A stretch of DNA of 64,000 nt from Rickettsiales bacterium. GTDB lineage: Bacteria > Pseudomonadota > Alphaproteobacteria > Rs-D84. Every line of letters begins with the position of its first letter. Position 1 is the first letter of the stretch. Below, in pieces: positions 208 through 64,000 of the stretch. The DNA is taken from NCBI GenBank assembly GCA_031260805.1, contig JAISKV010000004.1:4227-68226 (forward strand), given 5' to 3'. The notes under the pieces are model-generated. The model was not told where the DNA came from and searched no databases. It saw only the letters and a program-made list of their open reading frames with translations. Both the position numbers and the translations under genes were made by a program.

Positions 208-555
208 TTATGCCAGCAGCGACTCAAACTTTGCGATGAATGATTTCAGCAAGTTTGGCTTTTTCGTCTTTAATTTGGAAATCTTTTCCATGTTCGCCAA
301 TCGTTTTGACTGAAAAGGCTCTTCCGTTTCATCGCGCAGTCTTTTAAGAACCGCTTCATCGCTCATGCTGCGCCCTGATGCGCCGCTTGCGCCGTATTTG
401 GCGCGCTGGGCGGCCAAGGCTTTCTTTACCAGATTCGCCTTGGCTTTTTCGTCTTCGGCAATCTGCGCCAAGATTTTTGACTTCTCGGCCTTGGTCGCGT
501 TGTTTGCTTTTTTGTTTGTGATTATTTCCTGGATGTCGTTTACAATTGTTCCCAT
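208..555 (-). CDS. Hypothetical K/E-rich coiled-coil protein, last gene of the phage-like operon in this window (internal virion or scaffold-like)
   Basis: ORF directly downstream of the gp12-like gene; charged, low-complexity helical composition. Confidence 0.4.
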   Translation of the reverse strand: MGTIVNDIQEIITNKKANNATKAEKSKILAQIAEDEKAKANLVKKALAAQRAKYGASGASGRSMSDEAVLKRLRDETEEPFQSKRLANMEKISKLKTKKPNLLKSFIAKFESLLA

Positions 556-574
556 TTTTACACTCCTGTGTTTT

Positions 575-2287
575 TTATATTAAATACTGGCCTTCCATTT
601 TTATGGAAAGTATTGTCGCGCGCATGCCGCTGGTTCCTGAAATTTCCCACGGCGACGATGTCGCTGCGCGGTTCGTTCCCAGAAATACTGCTGACACGGC
701 ACCGGAAAACGGTTCCGTGAAAGTATGTTCAGATTCTGATTCGCAAACTGTGAATTTCAGATAATCCGATTCATGCAGCACGGCCGAGATTTTATTTATG
801 CGGACCTTTTCCGGCATGTGCCCGCCGCCCAGCATAGGCAGTCCGGATGCAGAGTATTGAAACGGCGGCTCGTCCGGGTCATCTGAAAATTTTTCCAGCC
901 AGAAATCGTCCCCGCGCCGCACGATGGCAAAAGTTTCATTGCCCAGGGTTACGACGGATCTGAATTGCCCGTCTGTTTCATACCGCGCCCAGCCCGAGAT
1001 TCCCATTTCGGAATTTTTATTCAAGACCGCCATGGTTCCGTCCGCCATCGCGACGAACAATTTTCTCGCCGCGCCGTTAAATGAAATGTCAACCGGCCCG
1101 TTCATCAAATGCCGCGCCGCCGCGCACAAATCGCGCGCGTTGTAATTCTGCTGCAAGTCATCCAGAACCAGTTCGCGCAATTCATCGCCTGTGCCGGCGA
1201 TGAAAACGGTGCAGTTTTCAATGCTCTGCGGTTCCAGATATTTTTCGCCGAAAGTGCCGATGGTGGCGTGCTGCTTGATGTCAATGGTTGAAGGCGTCAG
1301 CGGCTTGCTGGAAATCGCCCACACGCCGGCCGTGGTCAGAATCTGCAAGTTGTCGCAGGATACGGCCGTGCAGATTCTTTGCCTTTTGGATGCCAGCAGA
1401 GTCATGAAAATCGCTTCGTCATCCAATCCCGTTCCAGCGTTGAAATTATAGTGGTCGCCGACCTTGGACATCCAGATTCCGGCATCCCATTCGCGCGATC
1501 CGCCGAATACCAGACGGTTCTGATGGAATGTCGCGCAGCGCGGATATCCGCGGCGCGCGCTGAATGCCGATTCAGACCAGTCGCTCGTCTGCGTGCCTGG
1601 CGTCGTCCATCCGCCGTTCGTGTACGCGACGATCTGCGTCGGAGAAATGTATGACGAAATTATCCACTGCTTGCCCAGCGCCGTCAAATTCCCGTTAACA
1701 TTTCCGGCCGTCCAGAAATTACCGCTTGCGGTTATGGTGGCATAGTTCGTGCCTGCGCCGTTTTGCGCGAATGTCAGTTTAATATTCAGCGAATCGTCAA
1801 AGCGCATGAACGGGATATTGCGCGACATGTCGTCATTCACGCTGAAATAAAACTGCGCGATATCAAATGATTCGTCCGGCAGTTTTTTCAGCACCATCGG
1901 CGGATGATTTTCATGCGTGAAAATCATAGTGCCGAATCGCTGCGTGTACTGCACCGACGGGGTTTCGGCATCATTCCAAGGGGTCTGCAAATTTTGATAA
2001 AATTCGCCGTCCGGCGAAAAGATATCCACATGCCCGTCTGACAATGCCAGAATAAAATTGCTGCTGTCATCCGCGCAGTACGGGACCAGCACTGAATTTT
2101 CCGCAACGCCGTGCAGCCGCCGCAATCCGCGCCGCGGACGAATCGCTCCGCTGTCCGCGATGTCCATGTTGCACAGCCGCGCCAGCCCCGACGCCGCAAA
2201 TCCGTTGTCGCCGCGCCCCAGAAATTCCGGCGATATCTCGCCGTTTGCAAAAGAGTTTTGCGTCTTGATAAATTTTCCCATGTTCAC
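575..2287 (-). CDS. Phage tail tubular protein B-like (T7 gp12-like)
   Basis: N-terminus FIKTQNSFANGEISPEFLGRGDNG ... SGAIRPRRGL recalls T7 gp12 SIKNLKGGISQQPDILRYPDQG ... EGLQKRPPL; it follows the gp11-like gene with an ATGA overlap. Confidence 0.45.
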   Translation of the reverse strand: MNMGKFIKTQNSFANGEISPEFLGRGDNGFAASGLARLCNMDIADSGAIRPRRGLRRLHGVAENSVLVPYCADDSSNFILALSDGHVDIFSPDGEFYQNLQTPWNDAETPSVQYTQRFGTMIFTHENHPPMVLKKLPDESFDIAQFYFSVNDDMSRNIPFMRFDDSLNIKLTFAQNGAGTNYATITASGNFWTAGNVNGNLTALGKQWIISSYISPTQIVAYTNGGWTTPGTQTSDWSESAFSARRGYPRCATFHQNRLVFGGSREWDAGIWMSKVGDHYNFNAGTGLDDEAIFMTLLASKRQRICTAVSCDNLQILTTAGVWAISSKPLTPSTIDIKQHATIGTFGEKYLEPQSIENCTVFIAGTGDELRELVLDDLQQNYNARDLCAAARHLMNGPVDISFNGAARKLFVAMADGTMAVLNKNSEMGISGWARYETDGQFRSVVTLGNETFAIVRRGDDFWLEKFSDDPDEPPFQYSASGLPMLGGGHMPEKVRINKISAVLHESDYLKFTVCESESEHTFTEPFSGAVSAVFLGTNRAATSSPWEISGTSGMRATILSIKMEGQYLI

Positions 2288-2808
2288 CCCCGCACGCCGA
2301 TCAGCGGAAAGTTTTGTATGCCGCGAATCGGCGAATTGCTGCTGTCAATGAACTTGGCGTTCGCCAGTTCCAATTCATATAATCCGGACAGAGTTCTGAA
2401 TAAATTCTGATCGCCTGTCAGCGGCATGCAGAATTCCATGGCCAGTTTTGTCGCGGCGACCCCGATGAAATGACTGGGAAAAAATTCGCAGGATTTTTTC
2501 GCTATGGCGATTATTTTTATATTTTCCGCCGCGGTGAAAATCTCGTTTCCAATTATCTCGAAATTGCTTTCCGAACAAGAAATAATGCGCAGGACATCGG
2601 TCGGAATTGCAAATCCGCCGGATGCGCTGCGCGTCAAATCATATTTCATCGTCGCGAATCTCCAAGGATGCGCGGCGGTCAGATTGTCAATCGTCATGTC
2701 CCACACGGCGGCGGCCAGCATTGCGGCGGCCGAATTCTCATCCAGGGCCGCAATCGGCTTTTCCCCCAGTTTCAGCAAAGCCAGTGAAATTAAGTCAATT
2801 TGCGTCAT
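2284..2808 (-). CDS. Phage tail tubular protein A-like (T7 gp11-like)
   Basis: N-terminus IDLISLALLKLGEKPIAALDEN ... HPWRFA resembles T7 gp11 NDILASIGEPPVSTLEGD ... RGWTFN; gene order capsid, gp11, gp12 as in T7-like podoviruses. Confidence 0.45.
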   Translation of the reverse strand: MTQIDLISLALLKLGEKPIAALDENSAAAMLAAAVWDMTIDNLTAAHPWRFATMKYDLTRSASGGFAIPTDVLRIISCSESNFEIIGNEIFTAAENIKIIAIAKKSCEFFPSHFIGVAATKLAMEFCMPLTGDQNLFRTLSGLYELELANAKFIDSSNSPIRGIQNFPLIGVRG

Positions 2809-2809
2809 G

Positions 2810-3034
2810 TTAAATCCTTTTTATTTTTACGGCTGGCGCGGCGTCTGTTATCTTGAACAGCGCGGTGTCGTCCAAACCGCAGATTATTATTATGTCGCCG
2901 CCGTTCATCAGGCTTTTCATAGTGTTGAAAAATCCGTCGCAGCACAAAGCATCCATTTTGTCATGCGAACTGTAATGCCACAGCGTGAATCCGTTCGCGT
3001 ACGCGATGACGGACAGGTTTTTGTTTTGGAACAT
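2810..3034 (-). CDS. Small hypothetical phage-module protein
   Basis: 74 aa ORF packed between the hairpin and the gp11-like gene. Confidence 0.3.
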   Translation of the reverse strand: MFQNKNLSVIAYANGFTLWHYSSHDKMDALCCDGFFNTMKSLMNGGDIIIICGLDDTALFKITDAAPAVKIKRI

Positions 3035-3044
3035 GCTAAACTCC

Positions 3045-3133
3045 TTGGTTAAGTTTAAGGTTTGAGGTTTGAGGTTTAAGGTTTAAGGTAATTTTGTCAA
3101 TAACCTTAAACCCCAAACCTCAAACCTTAAACC
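3045..3133. terminator. Long near-perfect hairpin (aaggtttaagg / ccttaaacc arms, about 32 bp stem) immediately downstream of the capsid-like gene
   Basis: Inverted repeat seen directly; its position mirrors the T7 T-phi terminator after gene 10; the same aaggttt motif flanks host terminators elsewhere in the window. Confidence 0.5.
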
Positions 3134-3137
3134 TTGT

Positions 3138-3953
3138 TTATTCGCCGCACTTGATTTTAACGATGCCTTCGTTGTCAATCAGAACGCTGCCTTGGCTCAT
3201 GGAATTGCAGACAAAGTGCGAAGCGCGTTCGCCCACCCACGAGATGTCTGTTTTGACATCTTGGCCGACCGCGTGTCCGATTGCGGACGCGTGATACATA
3301 AAGCAGTCGCGCTCGTCATCGTCCACAGGCAATCCGTTGTGCAAAACCCAAATGACGCCCAGCCATTTCTTGGTCTCGAACCCAGACACCAGCGGTGTTT
3401 CGCCGCCGACATATTCCGCGGAAACGAATTCGTCCATGGACAGCAATTCATTCCACTGATGCACACCGACAACGGCGAACCTGCGCCCGTCATCAGGAAT
3501 GTCATTCGCGTTCAGCGATTCAATCGCGGACAAAATTCCGTCCTTGGTCAAACCGTCAGAGTAATCGCCGACAAAGTTGGTGGCGGCCGCCATTGAATTG
3601 ATAATCAATTCATCTGTCTTGCGCCCCAGCGCGTACGCGCCCGCGGACGCAACGACGCGCCGCTCGTCAATGTTGGTTTTGATTTCGTCCAACGCGTCAA
3701 CCCAGTCGCCGGCATAGTAATCCTGCAAGGCGCATTCAACGGATGTGTGCGCCAGATTCATGACGGGAACCAAGTCATGACGGGTTTTCGTGCTGGCGGT
3801 GCCGCGTCCGACTTTTTGGAAAGTCGTGCTGGAACCGACAATGCCGTCTTTGGAACGGATGGTGCTGCGCAGTTTTGTGCCCATCTGCTGGTATGCGAGA
3901 TGAACATCGGCCTCGAACTGCTTGACAAAGGCCTGGTTTATGCTTGTTGACAT
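3138..3953 (-). CDS. Putative phage major capsid protein
   Basis: 271 aa ORF at the capsid position, upstream of the gp11-like and gp12-like genes; no strong motif, so this is a positional call. Confidence 0.4.
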   Translation of the reverse strand: MSTSINQAFVKQFEADVHLAYQQMGTKLRSTIRSKDGIVGSSTTFQKVGRGTASTKTRHDLVPVMNLAHTSVECALQDYYAGDWVDALDEIKTNIDERRVVASAGAYALGRKTDELIINSMAAATNFVGDYSDGLTKDGILSAIESLNANDIPDDGRRFAVVGVHQWNELLSMDEFVSAEYVGGETPLVSGFETKKWLGVIWVLHNGLPVDDDERDCFMYHASAIGHAVGQDVKTDISWVGERASHFVCNSMSQGSVLIDNEGIVKIKCGE

Positions 3954-4106
3954 TATATTTTCCTTTGGTTGTAAAAAAACTTCGCGTATGCGAAGTCTGA
4001 TTGATTTGATTGTCCGTTATGCGTTGCCGCGCGGATTCTCAAATATCGCGGGTCCCAAAGATTTTCCGCAAATAGAAATGCAAAAAAATCGCCCGAAGGC
4101 GATTTT

Positions 4107-4373
4107 TTATTTTTTAACGACTTTTTTTGCCGCCGGTTTTTTCGCAACAACTTTCTTTGTGACCGGTTTTTTCACCGCGACTTTTTTCACCGCCGGTTTT
4201 TTCGCAACAACTTTCTTTGCGACCGGTTTTTTCACCGCGACTTTTTTCGCCGCCGGTTTTTTGGCGACAACTTTTTTCGCAGCCGGCTTTTTCGCGGCGA
4301 CTTTCTTTACTGCCGGTTTAGCAGCCGGTTTCGCGGCGGCTTTGACAACAGGTTTTTTTCCAAACAATGCCAT
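4107..4373 (-). CDS. Lys/Ala-rich basic repeat protein (histone H1-like), encoded by about 60 bp tandem DNA repeats
   Basis: AAKKPAAKKVVAKKP periodic repeats; tandem nucleotide repeats at 4121-4300; the plus-strand ORF 3922-4446 is its antisense artefact. Confidence 0.5.
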   Translation of the reverse strand: MALFGKKPVVKAAAKPAAKPAVKKVAAKKPAAKKVVAKKPAAKKVAVKKPVAKKVVAKKPAVKKVAVKKPVTKKVVAKKPAAKKVVKK

Positions 4374-4496
4374 TTTTCTCTCCTTTCAGGACTTAGTCAT
4401 TAGAAACAAATTTTATTGTTCCTTAACCACATTGTATCTGAAATAAAATTCGCGTGCAAGAGAAAAACATTTTTTGCGAATTATTTTTTATTTTTT

Positions 4497-5096
4497 TCAA
4501 CTGTATAATTTTCTGAAACCAGATTCTATTTTCCGGATGTGTTCGCCGTCGCGGTCGCGCCAGTATTTAGGATCCGCCATCATTTTTCGCAACGCCGCGT
4601 CATTCAGGGATTCCGCGGTGTTGGATGCGGTTTCAATTTTCGGTTCGGACGATCGCATCATCGCGAACACGGACTTGATTCCTTCCGCAGACCGCGACAA
4701 GTTTTCATACACATCGCCCGGCAGAAATTTTTCGCCGAAAGAATTTATTTCGCGCATCGCGTCATTCATTTTGTCTTCGCCGCCGAAAAATTTCTTTAAC
4801 TCTGCAAAATTTTCCGATTCGTATTGCGTTGAAAAAATGTTTTCCAGAACCGGCTGCAAAAATTCGTTCGCGATTTCATAAATTTTTTCCGCCTGGGCGC
4901 GGGACAGCCCCGCGTCCTTAAAGCGCTGCTTTAACTCTGCCGATGAAAACAGTTCGTGTTCCGGGTACTCGTTCGGGTCTTCGGGAATGTCGGCCGTTCT
5001 GGCCCCCAGTTTTTTTTCCAATTCGGCATAAGATTTAATCAGCATTTCATTGTTCAGCGAGCCGTCTTCATTCTGAAACTTTTTTGGGACTTCCAT
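4497..5096 (-). CDS. Acidic helical hypothetical protein (scaffold-like)
   Basis: 199 aa acidic, helical composition; sits upstream of the capsid-like gene as in T7 gene 9. Confidence 0.4.
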   Translation of the reverse strand: MEVPKKFQNEDGSLNNEMLIKSYAELEKKLGARTADIPEDPNEYPEHELFSSAELKQRFKDAGLSRAQAEKIYEIANEFLQPVLENIFSTQYESENFAELKKFFGGEDKMNDAMREINSFGEKFLPGDVYENLSRSAEGIKSVFAMMRSSEPKIETASNTAESLNDAALRKMMADPKYWRDRDGEHIRKIESGFRKLYS

Positions 5097-5692: not shown

Positions 5693-5807
5693 AAAAAAAA
5701 GCCGCGAATGCGGCGTAAAAAAAACGCGCCTTGCGCGCATCGTTGTTAAAAGCAGTATATCATAAAATGGCATTAAAATCAAGTCAAAAATATGATATAA
5801 TTGTATC

Positions 5808-8327
5808 GTGCTGAAAAATATACTCTGCGGTTTGCTGGTCGGAACCATGCTGTTCCAAAATATTTCATTCGCTGCGACGAACGCGCGCCGCGGGATTTCA
5901 GCGCCGGTCAGCGGGCCCAAGATTGTCGCGCGCGCGGCGGCAACCGCTTCCGTCGCGGGGGACGGGCAAAAGATACAGGTTGCGAAAACAAACTCGCTGG
6001 CGCCCCAAGAATGCCAGGATTATTGGTTCGGATGCATGGACGGATTCTGCATGTCTGATTCCGACAATGGCGGCCGCTGCATGTGCGGCGCGGATAAAGT
6101 CAAACTGGATGCGGAACTGCAAGGCATCAAAAATCAGATAAATGACAACGCGAATGCCGCATTGATTGCCAGCGACACCATAGCGGCCGGCGCAAATGCG
6201 GAAATCGTAAATTCCGGAACCGTGCGCCAGAATCGCGCCGCGGTCAAGGCGGCCGCCGCGTTGCGGACTTCGTCAAATGACGATGACATTTCCAGCATGA
6301 CCGGCATCCGGCGCCAGAACGCCGCCACGGAAATCTGCATGGAAAATCTGCCCGTCAATTGCGCGGATTCAATAACGATGACGAAAAGCCTGTATGCGAC
6401 GCAAATAGCGTCCGACTGCGGCGCGTATAAAAATTTCGTCGCGTCGCAGAATTTGGCGCTGCGCGATTCCAACTATGAAAAAGACAAAACGATTCGTGCC
6501 GCCGCGATGAAGAGTTTCGAGGATTCCAACAAATACACCCTGGGCGAATGCACGACTGAATTTATCAAGTGCATGCACACGCCGGACGCGTGCGGCGAAA
6601 ATTTGTGGGGCTGCATTTATCCTGACGAAAACGCGATGCAGACCGTCCTGCAAAGCAAAAAGTTGGTCTGCGATCACATAACAGCCAACTGTGTTCAATT
6701 CCGCGACGAAGTATGGCCGGCGGCGATGGCGGCGATGCGGGATGAATTTATCTTTGCGGCCCAGGCCAAGACCAGCGACGAATTGCAAAACTGCGGCGGC
6801 GAAATTGAAAAGTGCATACTGACGGCGTGCAATGAAAAAATCAACGGCGCGGACGCGAACGCATGCCTGGCGCGGCCGGAAATGGTGGAATCGTTTTGCA
6901 GGCCGCAGATAGAAAGATGCAACACGATAAACCCGCAGATTTACGAGTACAAACTGGCGGAATTGCAAGGCATGCGCAAAGATGCCTGTATGAAGGAATT
7001 TCAAGACTGCCTGTTGTCCGACAATGCCTGCGGCGAAAACATGTCCAATTGCATCGGGCTGGATCGTCCGCATATCCAGAAAATGTGCCCGCCGGAAAAG
7101 TTAGTAATTTGCAAAGGGTCAAATCCGAACTTTTCAATAAGCGACATAGACGACATGATAAACGGGATTTATCTGACGGCTGATAACGAAATGTGGAAAC
7201 TGTGCAGCAAAACAATCCAAGATAAAATGACTGAATTGTGCGGCGCGACGACCAGTTGCAATTACTTTGCGAGCACGGCGATTGGCAAAGACAATGTGAA
7301 TTATCAAAAAGTGAAAGACCAGCACTTGCTGACCGGAATGATAAATTGGGAAAGCGTTCCCGTGGTTGATGGAAAGATAGATACCGACGCGTACATCAAG
7401 ATGGTGCGCGGGATTGGCGATACAAAAAACACTGCGGATTCCGAAGCGGTGCTGGCCGGCATCCGCACGGGGCTGGACGATGCCCAGGGCTATGCGGACC
7501 GCGTGATAAATCTGTTGACCGCGGATCCGGGCGTCAGCGCCTGCATCAATGGGCGCGACATGTCCCAGGTGTCCGGTCGCAACAGCAAAATAGAAGGCCG
7601 CTTTCCAAATATTGCCGAGCCGTATAAAAATGTCATAACCCAATCAATATTGAACTATGCGCAGATGAATCAGAATGCCCGCGTTTTGGAATTGACGCAA
7701 AAGGCCAAGGAAGGCAAAAGCGCGGAAGAAATTGAAATGATGTGCCTGCAACTGCCCAGCCTGCTGGAAGGCGGCGCCAAGCAATTCAGCCAGGATCAGA
7801 ACAGCGAATTTATAACTGAAAGCAATTTTGCGACGACAAAGGTTATCGGAACAACGCTCAGTAATGTGCAGATGGCAAAGTTGAAAACGACAAAATTTCA
7901 ATTCACAAAGAACGATGTCATGTCGCGCGAGACATGGGCCGTGTACGAAGCCAGGGATAAAATATGCCATATTTATGGCAAGGATACTTTCTGCGGCAAG
8001 GAATCAACGGTCAAGGCGTATGTGCAGGCTGCGGAAAAGTCGTATGAAGACATCAAGAAAGAAGCGGCGAAAAACCTGAAAAAAGAAAGACTTGGTGAGG
8101 CAGGCGAAGCGGTCGCAATCGGTGCAGGAATCGCGATTGCCGCTGTTGCGGCGAATGCGGCGATTGTCGCGACATTCGGCGCGATTATAACGGTCGGCGC
8201 GTGCGTCCCGATTGTCGGCTGGATTGTGGCGGCGGCGGCGATTATAGTCGGCGCATTGCTGATAATATTCCGTAAAGAAAAAACGCTGTGCGAAACGCGC
8301 GATTGGGATAATCCGGTGCCGTTTTAA
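5808..8327 (+). CDS. Large secreted Cys-rich protein with C-terminal Ala/Gly-rich membrane anchor
   Basis: Signal peptide MLKNILCGLLVGTMLFQNISFA; recurring C..DACGEN..C motifs; hydrophobic C-terminus; antisense ORFs in this span are artefacts. Confidence 0.7.
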   Translation: MLKNILCGLLVGTMLFQNISFAATNARRGISAPVSGPKIVARAAATASVAGDGQKIQVAKTNSLAPQECQDYWFGCMDGFCMSDSDNGGRCMCGADKVKLDAELQGIKNQINDNANAALIASDTIAAGANAEIVNSGTVRQNRAAVKAAAALRTSSNDDDISSMTGIRRQNAATEICMENLPVNCADSITMTKSLYATQIASDCGAYKNFVASQNLALRDSNYEKDKTIRAAAMKSFEDSNKYTLGECTTEFIKCMHTPDACGENLWGCIYPDENAMQTVLQSKKLVCDHITANCVQFRDEVWPAAMAAMRDEFIFAAQAKTSDELQNCGGEIEKCILTACNEKINGADANACLARPEMVESFCRPQIERCNTINPQIYEYKLAELQGMRKDACMKEFQDCLLSDNACGENMSNCIGLDRPHIQKMCPPEKLVICKGSNPNFSISDIDDMINGIYLTADNEMWKLCSKTIQDKMTELCGATTSCNYFASTAIGKDNVNYQKVKDQHLLTGMINWESVPVVDGKIDTDAYIKMVRGIGDTKNTADSEAVLAGIRTGLDDAQGYADRVINLLTADPGVSACINGRDMSQVSGRNSKIEGRFPNIAEPYKNVITQSILNYAQMNQNARVLELTQKAKEGKSAEEIEMMCLQLPSLLEGGAKQFSQDQNSEFITESNFATTKVIGTTLSNVQMAKLKTTKFQFTKNDVMSRETWAVYEARDKICHIYGKDTFCGKESTVKAYVQAAEKSYEDIKKEAAKNLKKERLGEAGEAVAIGAGIAIAAVAANAAIVATFGAIITVGACVPIVGWIVAAAAIIVGALLIIFRKEKTLCETRDWDNPVPF

Positions 8328-8407
8328 TAAAAACCGCCTTTGTGCGGTTTTTTGACTTTAATTTCGGCTTGCAATATTGGATTTATCATTTATAATGTAC
8401 CGCGCAT

Positions 8408-8483
<76 letters not shown>

Positions 8484-8529: not shown

Positions 8530-11147
8530 TCAAATATTGTCATAGATTGCGGTTATTTTATCGGCCATTGTTTTTGCGGTGAAATTATTCAGATAATGCC
8601 GGCGCGCGCATTCGCCAATTTTCACGCGCTGATTTTTGTCATTAATCAGCCCTATTATTTTATCCGCCAGATCATTCGTATCAACGCGCAGCCCCCGTTT
8701 TTCATCCCATACGGGGCTTATCTTTACCGCGGTGCCGGGCGCGAATATTTCGCCCAGGCCATCAATGTCCGTCGTGATAATCGGCAATCCGAACGACATC
8801 ATTTCAATTGCCGCGTACGAGCATTGCTCTTGCAGCGAAGCAATAATTCCGATATCCGCGGATTTATAATATTCGCACAATTTGTCAAATTCAATCGTTC
8901 CCAGAATATTAACCGGCAGATTTAATTTGTCTATTTTCTTTTTATATGTTCCGCTTATCGCGCCGGCGACATCCAGACGGACATCGTATCCGCGGGCAAT
9001 GACTTTCGCGACGGCTTCCACGATAAAGTGCAATCCCTTGCTGGGGATTTCGGATCCCGTGAACAGCAAATTGAACCGCCCGCTTGTTTTGTATTCGCGC
9101 GCAAAGTTTTCCGCGCGGTCTGCGATTCCATTATAAATGCATTCGGATTTGGCACCGCATAAATTTCTTGAAAAATCCGCGCCGTTTTTTGTGCAGCATA
9201 TTAACTTGTCGGAATTCAGGTAAGACATTTTCTCAAAGTTTTCAACAATGAATTCGTCGTTGCATATTCCGTTCTGCGCCATTTTGTACAATTTGTTAAA
9301 TTTGGCAGGATTGGAATTAAAATAACTTTTCCAAGGCATGCAATGCAGGTGCGATATGATTTTCGCGCCCGACTTGCCGCGTATGAATTCCGCAAAGCCC
9401 ATCAGGTTCAGCGTATGCAGATGCAAAATTATGTTTTGTTTATTATCAAACAAATGCCTTATCATGTGCCATACGAATTCAGGCTGGGAATCCAGCAAAT
9501 TAAAGTGAACTTGGTTTATCCCGATTATATATTCGTTTCCATTGTCGCGGAAAAACACATCCCGCCCGACAATTATTTTTATACTGCGAACGATAACATT
9601 GCCGCGGATTTGCAGTTCTTTTTGCAATTCATCAAGATATCTGACGACCCCGGATACCCCGGAATTAGAGATGTTCATGAAAAACACGGTTCGTTCCGGC
9701 GGCAATTTAGCAAGTTCCGCAGCGCACCAATTGGTTGTATTCTTATCGTCGCAGCCCTTTGCAATTCCGTCCAGATGCGCGCGGCGAATATTTTCGCTGA
9801 TATCAGACTTGTGCTTTTCCAAGACTGAAATAACGGAATTCACATTGATTTTGTATTTTTTCTGATGCAGAAAATAATGAACGGTTTGTTTGTTCAGAAT
9901 GGATAGTTTGTATTTTTTATGATATCGCGCCAGAAAATCCAGATCTTGATACCGTTCCAACTGTTCGTCCCAGAGAATATCCCGAACGCTGTCCGCCGTC
10001 ATGACCCAGGTTGATGTCTGGGCGACGAACGGTACGCGCAAAAGGAAATTTATCATAGGCTCGCCCAGCCCCGGCAATCGCGCCGGCACAAGTTGTTTTT
10101 GGTTGATGACCAGGTCGCCGTAAACGCCATCGGATTTATCCCGCATCAAAACACGCAGTGATTCTTCCAAATGTTCCGGCACCCATGAATCATCGGCGTC
10201 CAGGAAAGCGATATATCTGCCGCGCGCCGCCTGTATTCCGGCATTGCGCGCGACATTTGCATTCTTGTGCGGCAGTTTTATCAGCCTGATGCGCGGGTCG
10301 GTGTGGCGCGCGATTTCTGATACGGTTTTGTCCGTGCTGCCGTCGTCAACAATGATGATTTCGGTATTGAACAGCGTTTGACTTATAACGGATTGGATTG
10401 TATCAAATATAGTATCCTGGACATTAAAGGCCGGAATTATCACGCTGGTCAAAATGTCTGGGAAAAATAATTCGTTAATCCGCGCAATGGATTTCAATTG
10501 AATGTCTTTCTGCGTCGCGGATACGGATTTGTCAGACACGCGGTATGCGGTCAGCGGTTCGGCAATGCAGTGATGCCGGCCGCCATTCTTTGCAATATCG
10601 CACCATAATTTGTAATCTTCGGCGGCGGGGAAATCGCCGTATTCCAGATTGTGCGCGGTCAGGAAGTCTTTGCGGATAACCGTGGTCGGATGAAAAATGC
10701 AATTTCCAAATTGCAACTCAAAAAACAAATCGTCTGTTTCCGTCTTGGATTTGGCAAGCGTGCCGGATCCGATAATATTCATCCAGGAACTGCAAATCGC
10801 AATATCCGGATTGTTGTTCATGAAATGAAATTGTTTTTCCAGACGGTCCGCCCGCATGATGTCGTCAGCGTCATGCCGCGCGATTAAATTTGCGCGCGCG
10901 CGTTTGATACCGATATTTAATGATTCGGAAATCCCGCTGTGTTCTTTGTTAATCAAAACAATGCGCGGGTCGGTGTGGCGCGCGATTTCTGATACGGTTT
11001 TGTCCGTGCTGCCATCATTGACGATAATCAGTTCCAGTCCGGAAAATGTCTGATTTAATACAGAACGAATTGAATCCGCAATAGTTTCCTGCGCATTATA
11101 TGCCGGCATAATCACGGATATCTTAATTGCGTCAGAGTTCATCCGAA

Positions 11148-11151
<4 letters not shown>
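8530..11151 (-). CDS. Multidomain glycosyltransferase (two GT2 domains plus a C-terminal GT1/GT4-type domain)
   Basis: Two IVNDGSTDK / IVDDGSTDK DxD-type GT2 N-terminal motifs and a GT4-like C-terminal half; internal DNA duplication noted in findings. Confidence 0.8.
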
Positions 11152-11909
<758 letters not shown>

Positions 11910-15773: not shown

Positions 15774-16340
15774 TTAAAATTTTATGCTGATACTGGTATC
15801 AAGCGCGATTGCAGAACCGATTATATCAATATCAAATCCGTAGATTTTTGTTGACGAAGAAAATCCGCTGTATGACAATCCAACTTTAATGTTGGATGTA
15901 TCGGTCAAGTTATATTGGACCCCGGCGCCAATCCCATAAGAGAATCCTGTTGCAGAAATTTCTTCACCATAAACATCAGCATCTATGTTGATAGATGCTA
16001 TTCCGATATTTGTTGAAATATATGGGGTAAATTGAGTATCCATCAGCGCGTATGTCCAGCCGATATCAAATTCATTTATTGAAGTTGTATCGTCTGTTTC
16101 GCGCGCAAAAAAAACGCCGCCCATCATTTTATTATTCCCGTACCCTAATGCAAATCCTCCGTAATTGTTAAATCCGCCGCTTGTGTTTTTAGCGATATTT
16201 ACCCCTTCAATTGACATTTTTATGTCAGTTGAACTGAGAACATTCGCACCAGTTGAGACTATGAACCCGTAATCATTGGCGGCATTTGCCGCGCCTGCCG
16301 CAATCATTGCCCCAAAAGACATTAACATAACTTTATTCAT
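15774..16340 (-). CDS. Small outer membrane beta-barrel protein
   Basis: Signal peptide; alternating amphipathic beta strands; C-terminal F. Confidence 0.6.
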   Translation of the reverse strand: MNKVMLMSFGAMIAAGAANAANDYGFIVSTGANVLSSTDIKMSIEGVNIAKNTSGGFNNYGGFALGYGNNKMMGGVFFARETDDTTSINEFDIGWTYALMDTQFTPYISTNIGIASINIDADVYGEEISATGFSYGIGAGVQYNLTDTSNIKVGLSYSGFSSSTKIYGFDIDIIGSAIALDTSISIKF

Positions 16341-18074: not shown

Positions 18075-18125
18075 GCTTTGATTTTAATCGCAAATTGTGA
18101 TAAAATCAAGGTAAATAGGTTGGCT

Positions 18126-18896
18126 ATGAAAAAAGCAATATTACTTTCACTTTTCACTTTTCACTTTTCACTTTGCGGCTTTGCCGCGAATGCTGTCTAT
18201 AATCCGGAACGATTTCGCGCGGAAATCCGCGATGGGCTGGACATCGTCGTCGCCGATACCGACCCGACGGATCGCCAGGCAGAGTTTAATGCGGGCGAAT
18301 TGGGCCGCGATGTTTACGGGCAATATGGCGCCAAGGAATATGATGGTCTGACCGTATTCGTTCCGACAGACGCGTATGTCCGCGGCGGAATTGGGTTGAA
18401 TCTGGGCGCGATTTCGGCAAAAATTGACGACAATGAATTGGAAAACGGAATGACAACCTGGCTGGGATTGGGTTGGGACTTGTCTTCGTATGTCAGATTG
18501 GAAGCGGATTTTCAGGCGCGCAGCCTGGCGTTCCAGGGGGCTGATGTCGGCGGCGGGCATGCGCGCGAATTGGCCGGAAATTTGTACTTTGACTTGGCGC
18601 GGCGGTTTGTGCGAACCGGGGACTTGACCGTGCGGCGGACATTTGTTCCGTACATCGGATTTGGGTTTGGCGTCGGGGACTTTCTGTTTGACGATGTTGG
18701 CGGCGTTGACGGGGGCCATGGCGGATTTATCGCCCCGCGCGGAATGGTTGGATTTAATGTCGCGCTGACCAGTTTGTTCAGCATTGATTTGTCGTGCCAG
18801 TATTCGCTGGTTGTGGCAAAAAATTACGGCTGGGGCGATGACCGGGCAACGCATGGGCTCAGTGATATTCGCGCATCAGTGCGGTTTGCATTCTAA
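18126..18896 (+). CDS. Outer membrane beta-barrel protein, paralog 1
   Basis: Signal peptide MKKAILLSLFTFHFSLCGFAANA; C-terminal VRFAF. Confidence 0.6.
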   Translation: MKKAILLSLFTFHFSLCGFAANAVYNPERFRAEIRDGLDIVVADTDPTDRQAEFNAGELGRDVYGQYGAKEYDGLTVFVPTDAYVRGGIGLNLGAISAKIDDNELENGMTTWLGLGWDLSSYVRLEADFQARSLAFQGADVGGGHARELAGNLYFDLARRFVRTGDLTVRRTFVPYIGFGFGVGDFLFDDVGGVDGGHGGFIAPRGMVGFNVALTSLFSIDLSCQYSLVVAKNYGWGDDRATHGLSDIRASVRFAF

Positions 18897-18905
18897 GGGA
18901 CAGTT

Positions 18906-19580
18906 ATGAAAAAAGCAATATTACTTTTACTTTTCACTTTTCACTTTTCACTTTGCGGCTTTGCCGCGAAAGCGGATCTGGTCTATGTCGCGCAAAGGGT
19001 GGAAGATGTTGATCCGAAAAACGCGAAAGAGCGCGGTCGTGAAGACCTGTCCCGGGATCGCCGGTATTATCTGGGCGGCGACTTTTCGTATTCGTTCTGG
19101 CAGTCAGAAAAACAGAACGGATTTGACATTGATGGGCGCGGCAATACCGGGTTTGATCTGATGGCCGGCATCCGCGTGTACGATACTTTCCGGTTAGAGG
19201 CGAACTATGCGAATACTGCGGCGAAGTACCGTGGATTTTCGGTATCTGAAAATATAGTCATGGTGAATGCGATTTGGGATGCACGAATTGATTACCTGTA
19301 TCGCTGGTTTCATCGCCAGTATGTTATGCCTTATGCCGGATTCGGCGTGGGATTGGCGTTTAACGATGCGTCAGGCGGTGCTGAAATTCGGCGCGAAACC
19401 AGCATTGCCGCGAATGCGATGGTCGGGCTGGGGATTGAATTCAACGAATGGTTTGCGCTGGATTTCGGATACCGGTATCTGTATGTGTCGTCGCCGGAAT
19501 TAAAAATCAGCGGCGTGAAAATCAGTTCTTTCGCGCCATCCGCGCATCAATTGCGGGCGGGCGTCCGTGTCAGTTTCTAG
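18906..19580 (+). CDS. Outer membrane beta-barrel protein, paralog 2
   Basis: Near-identical signal peptide MKKAILLLLFTFHFSLCGFAAKA; C-terminal VRVSF. Confidence 0.6.
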   Translation: MKKAILLLLFTFHFSLCGFAAKADLVYVAQRVEDVDPKNAKERGREDLSRDRRYYLGGDFSYSFWQSEKQNGFDIDGRGNTGFDLMAGIRVYDTFRLEANYANTAAKYRGFSVSENIVMVNAIWDARIDYLYRWFHRQYVMPYAGFGVGLAFNDASGGAEIRRETSIAANAMVGLGIEFNEWFALDFGYRYLYVSSPELKISGVKISSFAPSAHQLRAGVRVSF

Positions 19581-32692: not shown

Positions 32693-35263
32693 ATGATAAA
32701 AATTGCACGATTTTTGGCGTTTGCTTTGTCTGTATTTTATGGCGTTGGTGCGGTTGCCGATACGACATTGTCGGGCAGCGGCACCGGCAGCGCAAATATC
32801 AGCGAATCAGGAAATGTTTATTTGCAAGATTACACCCTTAACGCGGACAGCATCAGCGCGGGCATAAACATTGAATCTGTATCCGGGAAAAAGTTCGTTG
32901 TAAATCCAGATTTTGTCAATAATCCGGAAATGACCGCAACAAATGCCGTCATTATCGCCGATGGAATTTTTATGGGGAATGCCGGCGTCGGATCTGAATC
33001 AATTCATATAAATTCCGGTGCGGCCGGCAATATCTTTACCATAACGGGCGACACTATTGAAATAGACGGATTTGTTAATGCCGCGTTGGGGACGCTGGTT
33101 CTGAATGGACTGAACGGCATTAATATTGCCGGTGATATCCTGGGGAATGTCAATGGATACGCGTCTGATATAATTATTGGCGGTGGCGTTGACGGGGATA
33201 TAGATTTTAACCTGACCGGCGGAATGGAACTGGGCGGCGCGTCGCTGGCGCCGGGTTCGGTTGGCTCTTTTGCAGACTGGCGGGATAAATTTATATCTGG
33301 CGGCGGCGATGATGATTTGCGCGGCGGCGGCGCGATTGATGCGGTCGGCGATATTGTTATTGACAATAATATTGACGGGGACTTTGATATTTTCACCCTG
33401 GGGGATTTGTGGGTCGGCGGCAATCTGAACAACTTTTTTGATATAAATGCGGACAATGTTTATATTATCGGCGATGTAAACGGCGACGGTGTTATAAATG
33501 CCGATGATGATATTTACATTGGCGGAAATCTGGGCGGCAATGTGGATATGAACGCCGATGACATTTATGTCGGCGGCGATATCGTCGCAGGCGCGAAAAT
33601 TCGTCCAAATCTGCCGAATGGGCCTGGTTCTGATGCTTTGGGAAATTTTCATATGAGCCCCAGCGGCAATCCGGCGGATCCGTTCAAGACGCTGAATCTG
33701 CATATTGACGGGACTTATTATTTTGGAAACGATTCGTATCTGCAATTGGTCTTGAATCAAGATGTAGCGGATGCGGATGGGAACAGCGCGTATAATCCGG
33801 ATACTGATCGGGCTCTGCTGGAAGTAAGGAATTTTGTATCCCAAGTCAGTGTCAGTCCGAATTTTGTAGACATGAATACGACGCCGAATTTGGAAATCTT
33901 GGTTGACGGTCTGGGCCAGCAAAAGAAAATCTGGGTTATTCATGCGGATAACGCGATTGCAGGACTCGGCGACCTGGATGTTGCCGGCGTATGGTTTTAT
34001 GATGCCGCCCGTACCGAGCGGTTGTTCCAGGAAGCGGCCTTGATTTTAGAGAACGGCGATCATGATATCATGGCGATACTGGCGACAATGCGTCGGATGA
34101 AGGTTCTGGCGCTGAATGCGGCCGCCCATACCGGAAACGATGTCGCGATGGCGTCCGCAATGGATGACTTGATTGAATTGCGGTTGCGCGCTTACAATGG
34201 GTCTTCGGATATAGAGGATAATTTGACGAATATCATGGGATCGCTGTTCGGCAAAAGCGATGTGTATTACAAAATGATGGTTGCCGGCGGGTATCATGAT
34301 GACGCGGTTGATGTCATGGTGGCGAATATCGCAGGCAATGAAACGCCGGCCAGTTATGCGCGCGCGTTAAAGTATATCCGCGGATTCGGATTGGATTCAT
34401 CGGTTGGCTTGATAAAAAATATGGCTGTCGTTGCAACGCAGATGCGCGGCGCGGCGGTTGCGCAGTTGTTTAACGAATATACTTGGAACCGCTGGCGAGA
34501 TCCGCGCGGATTGTGGCTGAATTTTAATTCGTCCGGATTGGGCGATGACGATTATCTGTCGCTGAACGGCGGATTTGATTGGCAGTTCAACAAGAAGATA
34601 CTGGCCGGAATTAATTTCGGATACGCCGCCGGCGATGTATCAGAAATATTTGATTTCGGATTGTACGGAACATATCGGGTTAACAGCAAGATCAGGGCGT
34701 ACGCCAGTCTGAATCTGCTGTTTAATTCAGGAAAACTTGCCAGCGAAAATAAACTGATGGGCGAATTAAAGTCCGATTTCGGCGGCACCGATGTGTTCGT
34801 TGATGCTGGTATCATACATAATATTTTCAGCCCGTATATCAATGGGCGCGCTTCATTGGTCATCGGGAACCGCGGGGCGTTGGATTTGTCAAATCATATT
34901 TCCGACGGCCGCAACTTTATGGATATAAAATCGGACGGGGCGTTTGTGTTCGCGCCTGGATATGAAATAATGGTCGGCCGCGATGTGTGGCTGAATGTCA
35001 ATTCTTACATTCGTCCGATGGCAAAGTTTGGATTGGAATACAATCTGGCGGCGGGCGACGAACACTTGCGGTTCAAGTTCAGCGACGCGGGCAAATGGTA
35101 TAATTGGAATTACAGTTCGGATCCGCTGTGGGTGAAATACTCAATCGGAATTGATTACGCGCATTACGCACTGCGCACGACATTCAACTTGTCATACGAA
35201 GTTATCAAGAACGACAATATGAAAATGAACAACATAAAATTCGGCGGCACGGCACGATTTTAA
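32693..35263 (+). CDS. Autotransporter-like outer membrane protein (beta-helical Gly/Asp/Asn repeat passenger, C-terminal beta-barrel)
   Basis: Signal peptide; GD..I.GN repeat passenger; C-terminal alternating beta strands ending in F. Confidence 0.5.
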   Translation: MIKIARFLAFALSVFYGVGAVADTTLSGSGTGSANISESGNVYLQDYTLNADSISAGINIESVSGKKFVVNPDFVNNPEMTATNAVIIADGIFMGNAGVGSESIHINSGAAGNIFTITGDTIEIDGFVNAALGTLVLNGLNGINIAGDILGNVNGYASDIIIGGGVDGDIDFNLTGGMELGGASLAPGSVGSFADWRDKFISGGGDDDLRGGGAIDAVGDIVIDNNIDGDFDIFTLGDLWVGGNLNNFFDINADNVYIIGDVNGDGVINADDDIYIGGNLGGNVDMNADDIYVGGDIVAGAKIRPNLPNGPGSDALGNFHMSPSGNPADPFKTLNLHIDGTYYFGNDSYLQLVLNQDVADADGNSAYNPDTDRALLEVRNFVSQVSVSPNFVDMNTTPNLEILVDGLGQQKKIWVIHADNAIAGLGDLDVAGVWFYDAARTERLFQEAALILENGDHDIMAILATMRRMKVLALNAAAHTGNDVAMASAMDDLIELRLRAYNGSSDIEDNLTNIMGSLFGKSDVYYKMMVAGGYHDDAVDVMVANIAGNETPASYARALKYIRGFGLDSSVGLIKNMAVVATQMRGAAVAQLFNEYTWNRWRDPRGLWLNFNSSGLGDDDYLSLNGGFDWQFNKKILAGINFGYAAGDVSEIFDFGLYGTYRVNSKIRAYASLNLLFNSGKLASENKLMGELKSDFGGTDVFVDAGIIHNIFSPYINGRASLVIGNRGALDLSNHISDGRNFMDIKSDGAFVFAPGYEIMVGRDVWLNVNSYIRPMAKFGLEYNLAAGDEHLRFKFSDAGKWYNWNYSSDPLWVKYSIGIDYAHYALRTTFNLSYEVIKNDNMKMNNIKFGGTARF

Positions 35264-63678: not shown

Positions 63679-64000
63679 ATGATTTTTCACATAGTGAAAC
63701 GCGTATTTATCTTTTATCTTTCATCTTTTATTTTTCTGACGGCAATGCCCGCATTCGCCGCGTCGCGCGCGACCGACACTGGGCGCGCGGCCGCGACAAT
63801 CACCCGCGCGGCCGGACCGCAGAATATTTCCGCGCGGACTGCGGCCGCGCCGTCAAAAACCGTATCGGCGCGGGTTGCGCAAACGGCCGCGCCGGCCAAG
63901 GCGGTTGTCGCGCGCGCGGCGGATGCGGCCAGCGCTATGTCTGAATCCAGAACAGGGGCGGAATACGAGCAATGCAAGTCCGCCTATGTATCATGCATGG
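63679..64000 (+). CDS. Partial (5' end) paralog of the Cys-rich surface protein family
   Basis: Signal peptide MIFHIVKRVFIFYLSSFIFLTAMPAFA; Ala-rich linker then EYEQCKSAYVSCM, matching PQECQDYWFGCMDGFCM of the 5808 gene; truncated by the window end. Confidence 0.4.
   Translation, partial: MIFHIVKRVFIFYLSSFIFLTAMPAFAASRATDTGRAAATITRAAGPQNISARTAAAPSKTVSARVAQTAAPAKAVVARAADAASAMSESRTGAEYEQCKSAYVSCM

Follow-up and report, generated by a model that had tools for sequence, protein, structure and literature searches.

A large family of cysteine-rich, putatively exported proteins from gut Alphaproteobacteria, represented by an 839-residue protein of a Rickettsiales bacterium

In a 64,000-nucleotide stretch of a Rickettsiales bacterium genome (contig JAISKV010000004.1, positions 4,227 to 68,226; hereafter the window), the gene at 5808..8327 (+) encodes a cysteine-rich protein of 839 residues. 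We found that this protein belongs to a large family with a conserved cysteine scaffold and no known relatives, which appears to be confined to small-genome gut Alphaproteobacteria (Candidatus Enterousia, the order Rs-D84, and their relatives). We read the target protein as a Sec-exported, disulfide-rich, membrane-anchored envelope protein that would act together with its paralogs in a structural or organizing role, and we give this reading a probability of roughly 45%. A database protein search showed that the product is identical to NCBI protein MDR0803722.1 (locus tag LBO08_01355), which is annotated as "hypothetical protein" and comes from a 70,768-bp contig of a metagenome-assembled genome (MAG) labeled Rickettsiales bacterium. 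Thus, the 839-residue reading frame called by the first-pass annotation, which had been made from the sequence alone, corresponds to an existing database protein.

The family turned out to be far larger than the window could reveal. When 1.84 billion representatives were searched exhaustively with HMMER, 1057 clusters, defined at 50% identity, matched at E ≤ 1e-3 and 601 at E ≤ 1e-30; the target itself scored 1000 bits against the family hidden Markov model (HMM). A word-indexed homology search gave just 9 to 12 relatives, a strong understatement of the family. Scanning one genome per GTDB species for the signature [YFW]x[GA]CMDxFC[MLT] identified 414 confirmed loci. The best 80 of these 414 come nearly all from gut MAGs (human, ruminant, horse, chicken, rabbit, and termite) and are labeled Candidatus Enterousia, Alphaproteobacteria bacterium, or Rickettsiales bacterium. 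These numbers bear out the family of large Cys-rich proteins that the first-pass annotation had proposed. The columns of the N-terminal family signature were invariant in both a 9- and a 110-sequence alignment, and the target carries the signature at residues 69-93.

The open reading frames (ORFs) of the fetched loci were sorted with local HMMs and by BLAST against three reference proteins of the complete chromosome OZ007020.1 (locus L054), which resolved three subfamilies: A (86 sequences), B (66 sequences), and C (59 sequences). The target is of the A type, being 33% identical (E 1e-116) to the protein of L054:9857-12358, while a local HMM search of the window found no B-type ORF. In a set of 343 sequences, each subfamily showed its own C terminus. 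All 78 B-types carry a glycine-zipper hairpin around P-G-W-G followed by the tail ...CQEIESCEDINM, most A-types have a Gly-rich but non-hydrophobic segment and end in ...C-T-x-M...I-K-M, and C-types end in Thr/Ser/Asn-rich tails. In 22 of the 204 A-types, including the target, the two helices form a hairpin that is truly hydrophobic and shares the P-x-x-G-W turn, and the glycine-zipper hairpin of the B-types sits at the same place as this more hydrophobic element. The best identity of the target to its Enterousia orthologs is 35%; the corresponding values were 36-40% for the outer-membrane beta-barrel proteins encoded in the window, 58% for its LigA, and 89% for its ribosomal protein S4. By these comparisons, the divergence of the target appears comparable to that of outer-membrane proteins and well past that of housekeeping proteins.

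The architecture of the target was read from its sequence, from alignments of its homologs, and from an AlphaFold model built on the 110-sequence alignment (mean predicted local distance difference test, pLDDT, 79; predicted template modeling score 0.53; most of the core above 85). The features of the gene, together with the paralog found in the same window, are as follows:

5808..8327 (+): gene of the A-subfamily Cys-rich, putatively exported protein (ORF with GTG start, 839 aa)
5808..5873 (+): predicted Sec signal peptide, residues 1-22, cleavage after S-F-A (sequence reading, homolog alignment, hydrophobicity)
5874..6005 (+): basic Ala/Arg/Thr-rich low-complexity linker, residues 23-66, modeled as disordered
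6006..7259 (+): predicted helical Cys-rich core, residues 67-484, 28 cysteines (AlphaFold model and conservation of Cys columns)
6543..6620 (+): internal repeat module 1, C248-x6-C255-x6-C262 GEN-x3-C269 (hhalign)
6981..7058 (+): internal repeat module 2, C394-x6-C401-x6-C408 GEN-x3-C415 (hhalign)
7260..8102 (+): predicted mixed alpha/beta domain, residues 485-765, with conserved C579, C646, C720, and C729 (AlphaFold, Cys conservation)
8103..8273 (+): C-terminal hydrophobic two-helix hairpin, residues 766-822, turn P-I-V-G-W, putative membrane anchor
8274..8327 (+): C-terminal tail, residues 823-839, with conserved C828, then the stop codon (AlphaFold, alignment)
63679..64000 (+): 5' part, 107 codons, of a C-subfamily paralog (translation; MDR0803769.1, LBO08_01630, 786 aa in full)

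The N terminus consists of K3, the hydrophobic segment ILCGLLVGTMLF, and S-F-A, followed at the predicted cut by a further alanine, and this site aligned with the AxA sites of the homologs. The signal peptide noticed at first reading is therefore retained, as one of the Sec type, on the basis of the sequence and the homolog alignment. The signal peptide of the target does not end in a lipobox ([LVI][ASTVI][GAS]C), so the protein is presumably not a lipoprotein; its sole early cysteine, C7, is preceded by N-I-L and is kept in only 2 of the 343 sequences. The linker was modeled with pLDDT below 50 at residues 20-55. Repeated (V/I/T)(S/A)R motifs were seen in linkers of each subfamily, the longest linkers being those of C-types. 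The core, which opens with the family signature C-x6-CMD-x-FC ... RC-x-C, was modeled mostly at pLDDT 85-95 and as helix throughout, save for the low-confidence residues 130-158, and its Cys columns are 95-100% conserved in the 343-sequence alignment. Comparison of the sub-alignments of residues 236-300 and 380-440 with hhalign supported a duplication within the core (probability 94.9%, E 4e-8). The first-pass annotation had described recurring DACGEN and CM-type motifs; DACGEN (residue 260) and CMDGFCM each occur once, but the sister NACGEN lies at about residue 406, and what recurs is therefore the module C-x6-C-x6-CGxN-x3-C, which is present twice.

The alpha/beta domain was modeled at pLDDT 80-97 across much of its length, and two of its cysteines, C720 and C729, are lost together. 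Beyond it, residues ~766-822 are rich in Ala, Gly, Ile, and Val, and reach a Kyte-Doolittle value of 2.87; the two helices of the hairpin (773-795 and 805-821) were modeled at low confidence. The Ala/Gly-rich hydrophobic stretch described earlier as a C-terminal anchor is thus present, at residues 767-822, and its anchoring role is putative. The C828 column past the hairpin is kept in 89% of the 343 sequences, including those that lack the hairpin, and in the AlphaFold model residues 826-832 form a strand going back to the alpha/beta domain. Because this cysteine is conserved irrespective of the hairpin and the modeled strand returns to the ectodomain, the hydrophobic element is best read as a loop-like hairpin that would have both ends on one side of the membrane.

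The target stands out among the window genes by its cysteine content: 36 cysteines (4.3%), against a mean of 1.01% and no value above 3.1% in the 43 other ORFs with a length of 150 aa or more (binomial tail 1e-12); the earlier count of about 50 was too high. Across all subfamilies, some 30 Cys columns are kept in 95% or more of the 343 sequences, and 13 of the 16 invariant columns of the 110-sequence alignment are cysteines. Candidate disulfide partners were inferred from co-loss across the 343 sequences, with the following counts of absence:

C341-C353: both absent in 68 sequences, first absent in 69, second absent in 68
C329-C371: both absent in 5, first absent in 6, second absent in 5
C255-C288: both absent in 61, first absent in 63, second absent in 62
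C720-C729: both absent in 77, first absent in 77, second absent in 101

Past the first 30 residues, the number of cysteines is even in 267 of the 343 sequences (78%). The target has no CxxC, CxxCH, or ferredoxin-type motif and just five histidines, and many of its cysteines are spaced i, i+7 (heptad spacing) on predicted helices. Together with the DsbA-like genes found near related clusters (see below), the conserved Cys columns, their pairwise loss, the even counts, the lack of CxxC and CxxCH, the few histidines, and the helical spacing favor an all-disulfide scaffold over metal binding. The alternative is that the cysteines bind zinc, iron-sulfur clusters, or similar cofactors, in a periplasmic redox or metal-handling protein suited to the anoxic gut. 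It draws on the anoxic habitat and the lack of respiratory quinone-dependent chains (PMC12306168), which make classical DsbB-driven oxidation questionable, and on the failure to find DsbA in the window. Given the missing metal-binding motifs and the five histidines, the heptad-spaced and pairwise-lost cysteines, the even counts in 78% of sequences, and a DsbA-like gene near the cluster in 23 loci, we consider metal binding highly improbable.

In the second gene, at 63679, the signal peptide is followed by an Ala/Arg-rich linker and then by EYEQCKSAYVSCM, and the translation agrees with the opening described in the first-pass annotation. Its product, MDR0803769.1, is also annotated as "hypothetical protein"; the full-length paralog (786 aa, 30 Cys) was recovered on a Logan contig from the same sample (L001:1043-3403). 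Its signature segment, CKSAYVSCMDQFC, corresponds to the family C-x6-C-M-D-x-F-C ... R-C-x-C. BLASTP aligned the paralog with the target over the N-terminal motif alone (E 5e-4), plus a weak C..CGxN..C match, and an HMM of the closest relatives of the target detected it at E 1.4e-36. It scored E 2.7e-156 against the HMM of the C subfamily and is 31% identical (E 2e-71) to the C-type reference of OZ007020.1. In the 343-sequence alignment, the two proteins are 16% identical overall and have 21 Cys columns in common, which reach target residue 466. Thus, the cysteine motifs are not limited to the shared N terminus, a limitation that would have spoken against a family. The two genes had been presented as copies of each other, a closeness that does not hold: at 16% identity they fall into different ancient subfamilies, and the paralog has no C-terminal hydrophobic anchor. 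The target and the 63679 gene are true members of one family, but very distant ones, and thus ancient paralogs rather than recent copies.

None of the searches connected the family to a known one. Scans of the target against Pfam, NCBIfam, and PHROGs gave no family match, and Pfam scans of the paralog and 49 family members returned only sub-threshold matches to hydrophobic or glycine-zipper C termini. B-types matched Gly-zipper_YMGG (PF13441) at 14-17 bits (cut-off 28.9) and Gly-zipper_Omp (PF13488) at a best E of 5e-4, and their C termini also gave sub-threshold matches to class IIc bacteriocin profiles; the target itself had no glycine-zipper match. PDB sequence-profile searches with the 9- and 110-sequence profiles gave nothing below E 0.7. 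Foldseek found nothing in the PDB with a first, poor model (pLDDT 62), and with the pLDDT-79 model nothing at E ≤ 0.001 in the PDB or BFVD (TM-scores ≤ 0.17). The weak matches that it listed (dynein, spectrin, phage internal virion, and tape-measure proteins) were rejected as generic long-helix proteins. Given these empty searches, the fold, as modeled, is not recognizably related to any solved structure. No autotransporter or adhesin profile, beta-barrel translocator, or other surface-export module was matched in the target, whose C terminus is helical and hydrophobic. The profile searches and structure prediction suggested by the first-pass annotation have thus yielded neither a known family nor a known fold, while supporting the repeat within the core; with no match in Pfam, NCBIfam, PHROGs, PDB sequences, or Foldseek, the family is also not a known characterized adhesin. 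Searches of the literature on Enterousia, RF32, and Rs-D84 turned up no mention of the Cys-rich A/B/C family. Exported Cys-rich bacterial envelope proteins as such are already known; the A/B/C family, its fold, the three-paralog cluster, and the apparent restriction to this lineage are undescribed.

The genes of the three subfamilies form a conserved cluster. The order C(-) B(+) A(+) was found in 57 loci, B A in 8 loci, and A alone in 20 loci (termite, UBA, and RUG types), so that the C-B-A cluster is typical of Enterousia loci and not of termite/UBA/RUG-type loci. In the three A-alone relatives examined (P0002, P0005, and P0006), A lies directly downstream of rpoA-rplQ. In one termite-gut relative, an RVT_1 reverse-transcriptase gene and small ORFs are inserted between rpoA and rplQ (L002:7265-8329) and so break up the end of the ribosomal protein operon, a region that is otherwise conserved. 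On the 3' side of A, 38 loci have a co-oriented gene of the periplasmic BOF family at a median distance of 107 nt, in 53 loci C comes with a conserved secreted protein of 243 aa that contains cysteines, and a membrane-anchored DsbA-like protein with a CPFC motif is encoded within 10 kb in 23 loci. The neighbors in OZ007020.1 include a PMP-repeat autotransporter, two OmpA-domain proteins, a polysaccharide pyruvyl transferase, and small Cys-rich secreted proteins. On the 3' side of A in this Enterousia locus (L054:12419-15588) stand, in order, the genes of the periplasmic BOF protein (OB-fold), a 212-aa protein, recO, and the DsbA-like protein (CPFC); the 212-aa secreted protein has 16 cysteines in ephrin-receptor-like/TNFR-like Cys-rich repeats. 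The window departs from the C(-) B(+) A(+) BOF arrangement, its A and C genes lying apart and no BOF neighbor being seen. A search for DsbA, BOF, and the 243-aa neighbor found none of them in the window or in the related loci specifically checked, termite ones included. Further large Cys-rich hypothetical proteins (3.6-7.3% Cys) that fall outside A/B/C by HMM are encoded at L002:14293-21014 and L003:15863-18174, so these lineages may carry several independent Cys-rich exported families.

We favor a periplasm-facing envelope protein because of the periplasmic BOF partner gene, the envelope-type neighbors, the lack of a surface-export module, and the divergence resembling that of outer-membrane proteins. 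An envelope role had been suggested at first reading, and it agrees with the predicted signal peptide and membrane hairpin, with the disulfide signature of the cysteines, and with the neighbors and the divergence. In such a protein the signal peptide would be cleaved and an ectodomain of ~740 residues would fold in the periplasm, where ~17 disulfides introduced by a DsbA-like oxidase would hold the long helices and the alpha/beta domain rigidly together as a scaffold. The two-helix hairpin at the C terminus would dip into the membrane, in the very hydrophobic version of the target most likely the inner one, and the short tail would return to the ectodomain and be tied to it via C828. Its partners would be the C-type product of the 63679 gene here and, in Enterousia, the members of the C-B-A cluster, with B providing a glycine-zipper anchor.

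Several observations weigh against this reading. The lineage is reported to lack respiratory chains (PMC12306168), we identified no DsbB or VKOR partner for DsbA, and the DsbA-like gene itself was missing from the window and the related loci specifically checked, including the termite ones. The hairpin is flanked by Lys-rich segments on both sides (KKERLGE... and FRKEK), which, under the positive-inside rule, is awkward for hairpin ends that face the periplasm. Because a hydrophobic hairpin occurs in just 22 of the 204 A-types, it cannot be the general mode of attachment. Synteny is the sole argument for a putative A/B/C complex, and here A and C are 55 kb apart with no B-type seen in the window.

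The main rival reading, in line with the host-interaction role raised by the first-pass annotation, is a surface-exposed adhesin or partner-interaction protein. It would present the same Cys-stapled ectodomain on the outside of the cell, binding host epithelium, a protist, or another bacterium; its basic N-terminal linker would contact acidic surface polymers, and the bacteria would depend metabolically on the bound cell. The lineage has been suggested to live as an obligate symbiont or parasite, taking metabolites from other cells, and it has many unexplained membrane proteins (PMC12306168). The fast divergence over an invariant Cys scaffold recalls many exposed proteins, disulfide-rich architecture is typical of extracellular ones, the linkers are Arg-rich and non-acidic, and the Enterousia neighbors include a Chlamydia-PMP-type autotransporter and the ephrin-receptor-like/TNFR-like Cys-rich protein. 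However, the target has no recognizable outer-membrane route (beta-barrel, autotransporter, or lipobox) and matches no adhesin family, the conserved adjacent gene encodes a periplasmic BOF protein, and the hairpin (Kyte-Doolittle 2.9) is hydrophobic enough for retention in the inner membrane. A membrane-anchored protein that faces the periplasm would account for the hydrophobic hairpin and for the BOF gene beside orthologs no less well than a surface location, and we regard an adhesin as doubtful. We consider it distinctly unlikely that A, B, and C together make up a lineage-defining, disulfide-locked envelope machine of new fold, anchored by glycine zippers, that attaches to other cells and draws metabolites from them.

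Glycine zippers are used by some pore formers, and the weak matches of B-type C termini to glycine-zipper and class IIc bacteriocin profiles could point to a secreted or contact-delivered effector, the hairpin of which would insert into a partner membrane as a nutrient pore or bridge while the Cys-rich body served as delivery scaffold. Although intercellular connections have been speculated for the lineage (PMC12306168), all of these profile matches lie below curated cut-offs, no secretion system genes were seen beside the cluster, and most A-types and all C-types are without a hydrophobic hairpin. The conserved tail cysteine past the hairpin also suggests that the hairpin is a fixed loop for anchoring and not an element to be deployed, and an effector is thus very unlikely. 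A link to phage was prompted by the structural genes at 575-5096 (-) directly upstream of the target and by a tRNA-Ala gene at 8408-8483; the target would then be prophage cargo (lysogenic conversion) or a long helical internal virion protein, and the weak Foldseek matches in BFVD do include internal virion and tape-measure proteins. Those matches had TM-scores ≤ 0.17 with none at E 0.001, no PHROG matched, and no relative was found in IMG/VR viral contigs. Relatives have the gene after rplQ (P0002, P0005, and P0006) or in the Enterousia C-B-A cluster, blastp with the phage proteins of the window gave no homolog at any of the related loci, and the target is divergent from the phage module and has a terminator-like hairpin of its own. 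No attachment-site repeats of the tRNA-Ala were found in the first 12 kb of the window. With no PHROG or IMG/VR relatives and with orthologs that lie after rplQ or in the C-B-A cluster, we rejected the cargo hypothesis as scarcely credible, and the adjacency looks incidental. We therefore retain the periplasm-facing envelope protein as our preferred reading.

The closest analogies of such a protein appear to be functional and not evolutionary. Chlamydial OmcB and OmcA are large Sec-exported proteins of a small-genome, host-dependent bacterium, with dozens of cysteines and a basic N-terminal segment; they are thought to stiffen or organize the chlamydial envelope via disulfides and co-occur with PMP-type autotransporters. 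The target resembles them as a Cys-studded, putatively exported protein with a basic linker from a small genome, and a PMP-repeat autotransporter stands near the Enterousia cluster. In contrast, Pfam and NCBIfam scans of the target and 49 members gave no chlamydial OMP or DUF11-type match, and the predicted fold consists mainly of long helices, whereas OmcB is beta-rich. Because the Rs-D84 lineage keeps MreB, RodA, and penicillin-binding protein genes (PMC12306168) and the window encodes a class A penicillin-binding protein, the target would not be a substitute for peptidoglycan. Helicobacter Hcp, with its Sel1-like repeats, is likewise an exported helical protein in which regularly spaced Cys pairs staple adjacent helices. 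Unlike Hcp, the target has no Sel1/SLR profile match, a C-x6-C spacing that is often chained three or four times, 839 residues that include an additional alpha/beta domain and a hairpin for the membrane, and no PDB match by sequence or fold. The two-helix Gly/Ala-rich hairpin as a membrane-inserting element is reminiscent of SlyB/Pcp-type glycine-zipper lipoproteins, but there is no lipobox, the hairpin is C-terminal after a ~700-residue Cys-rich ectodomain, and the profile matches are below cut-offs. Cys-rich surface coat proteins of eukaryotic parasites, such as the variant-specific surface proteins of Giardia, also show fast-evolving sequence on an invariant Cys frame, and they have a signal peptide as well as a hydrophobic anchor at the C terminus. 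They differ in that the target has no CxxC and no EGF/furin/TNFR-type match; it is bacterial, and no homology to them was detectable.

The immediate surroundings of the target contain the following signals and genes:

5773..5801 (+): promoter-like site, TTAAAA, 17 nt, TG-n-TATAAT with extended -10 (consensus scan alone, 10/12 matches)
8330..8353 (+): intrinsic-terminator-like hairpin, AAAACCGC ctttgt GCGGTTTT plus T run (read from sequence)
8408-8483: tRNA-Ala(GGC), downstream of the target
4497-5096 (-): phage scaffold (PF05396)
4107-4373 (-): 88-aa Lys/Ala/Pro-repeat protein
3138-3953 (-): phage major capsid (PF19821)
2284-2808 (-): phage tail tube A
575-2287 (-): phage tail tube B

The promoter-like site is the sole good one and ends 7 nt 5' of the GTG start, and no Shine-Dalgarno sequence is visible (5773-5808). 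This arrangement suggests a very short leader or a leaderless transcript. The terminator-like hairpin, which was not listed by the scan that gave the promoter-like site, starts 3 nt past the stop codon.

The phage genes belong to a podovirus (T7/pelagiphage-like) structural module upstream of the target (211-5096, -). A portal gene is missing from its expected place upstream of the scaffold gene, so the module is probably a prophage remnant. Its capsid is 61.5% identical to that of the human faecal phage contig MT838907.1 and 46.7% identical to that of Pelagibacter phage EXVC031P. The 88-aa ORF at 4107-4373 (-) consists almost throughout of AKKPAAKKV-type repeats, with 15/30-nt tandem DNA repeats at 4118-4319, and may encode a histone-H1-like DNA-binding or decoration protein.

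Other genes of the window were noted in passing. A gene at 8530-11151 (-) encodes an 873-aa fusion glycosyltransferase with two GT2 domains and a GT4/GT1 domain; the duplication of GT2 shows in the DNA as a direct repeat of 74 nt within the gene (10289 and 10961, 89% identical). It is followed by an ORF of 253 aa at 11148-11909 (-) with an N-terminal (ER)x9 dipeptide repeat (MIKNRGTLERERERERERERE...) and no Pfam or PHROG match. Small OMP_b-brl beta-barrel genes lie at 15777-16340 (-), 18078-18893 (+), and 18906-19577 (+), the latter two being tandem paralogs with near-identical signal peptides. The secreted-looking 856-aa protein encoded at 32693-35260 (+) has no Pfam family and, in contrast to the Cys-rich family, not one cysteine; it may be another lineage-specific envelope protein.

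Candidatus Enterousia belongs to the alphaproteobacterial order Rs-D84; its genomes are smaller than 1 Mb, and it is fermentative, without respiration or flagella (PMC12306168). It has few recognizable transporters and many unexplained membrane proteins, and is suspected to be an obligate symbiont or parasite (PMC12306168); Rs-D84 has also been found in lower and higher termites (PMC11257099). These bacteria and their small-genome relatives, all uncultured so far and suspected of living at the expense of other cells, are common inhabitants of the gut in humans, livestock, poultry, and termites. Yet, despite severe genome reduction, three paralogous genes of ~2.4 kb are retained across much of the lineage. 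Because of this retention, the ~30 conserved cysteines, and the lack of any known relative or fold, the A, B, and C genes are strong candidates for a structure that defines the envelope or makes contact with partner cells. The family offers antibody targets for localization or enrichment, markers for metaproteomics, and a potentially new disulfide-stapled helical fold. It is also a test case for how extensive periplasmic disulfides would be kept up in strict fermenters without respiratory quinones. Should the three proteins form a cell-attaching machine, they would constitute a signature organelle of widespread uncultured "parasitic" Alphaproteobacteria of the gut; if they are just a periplasmic scaffold, they would still make up a large family that merits its own name and profile model.

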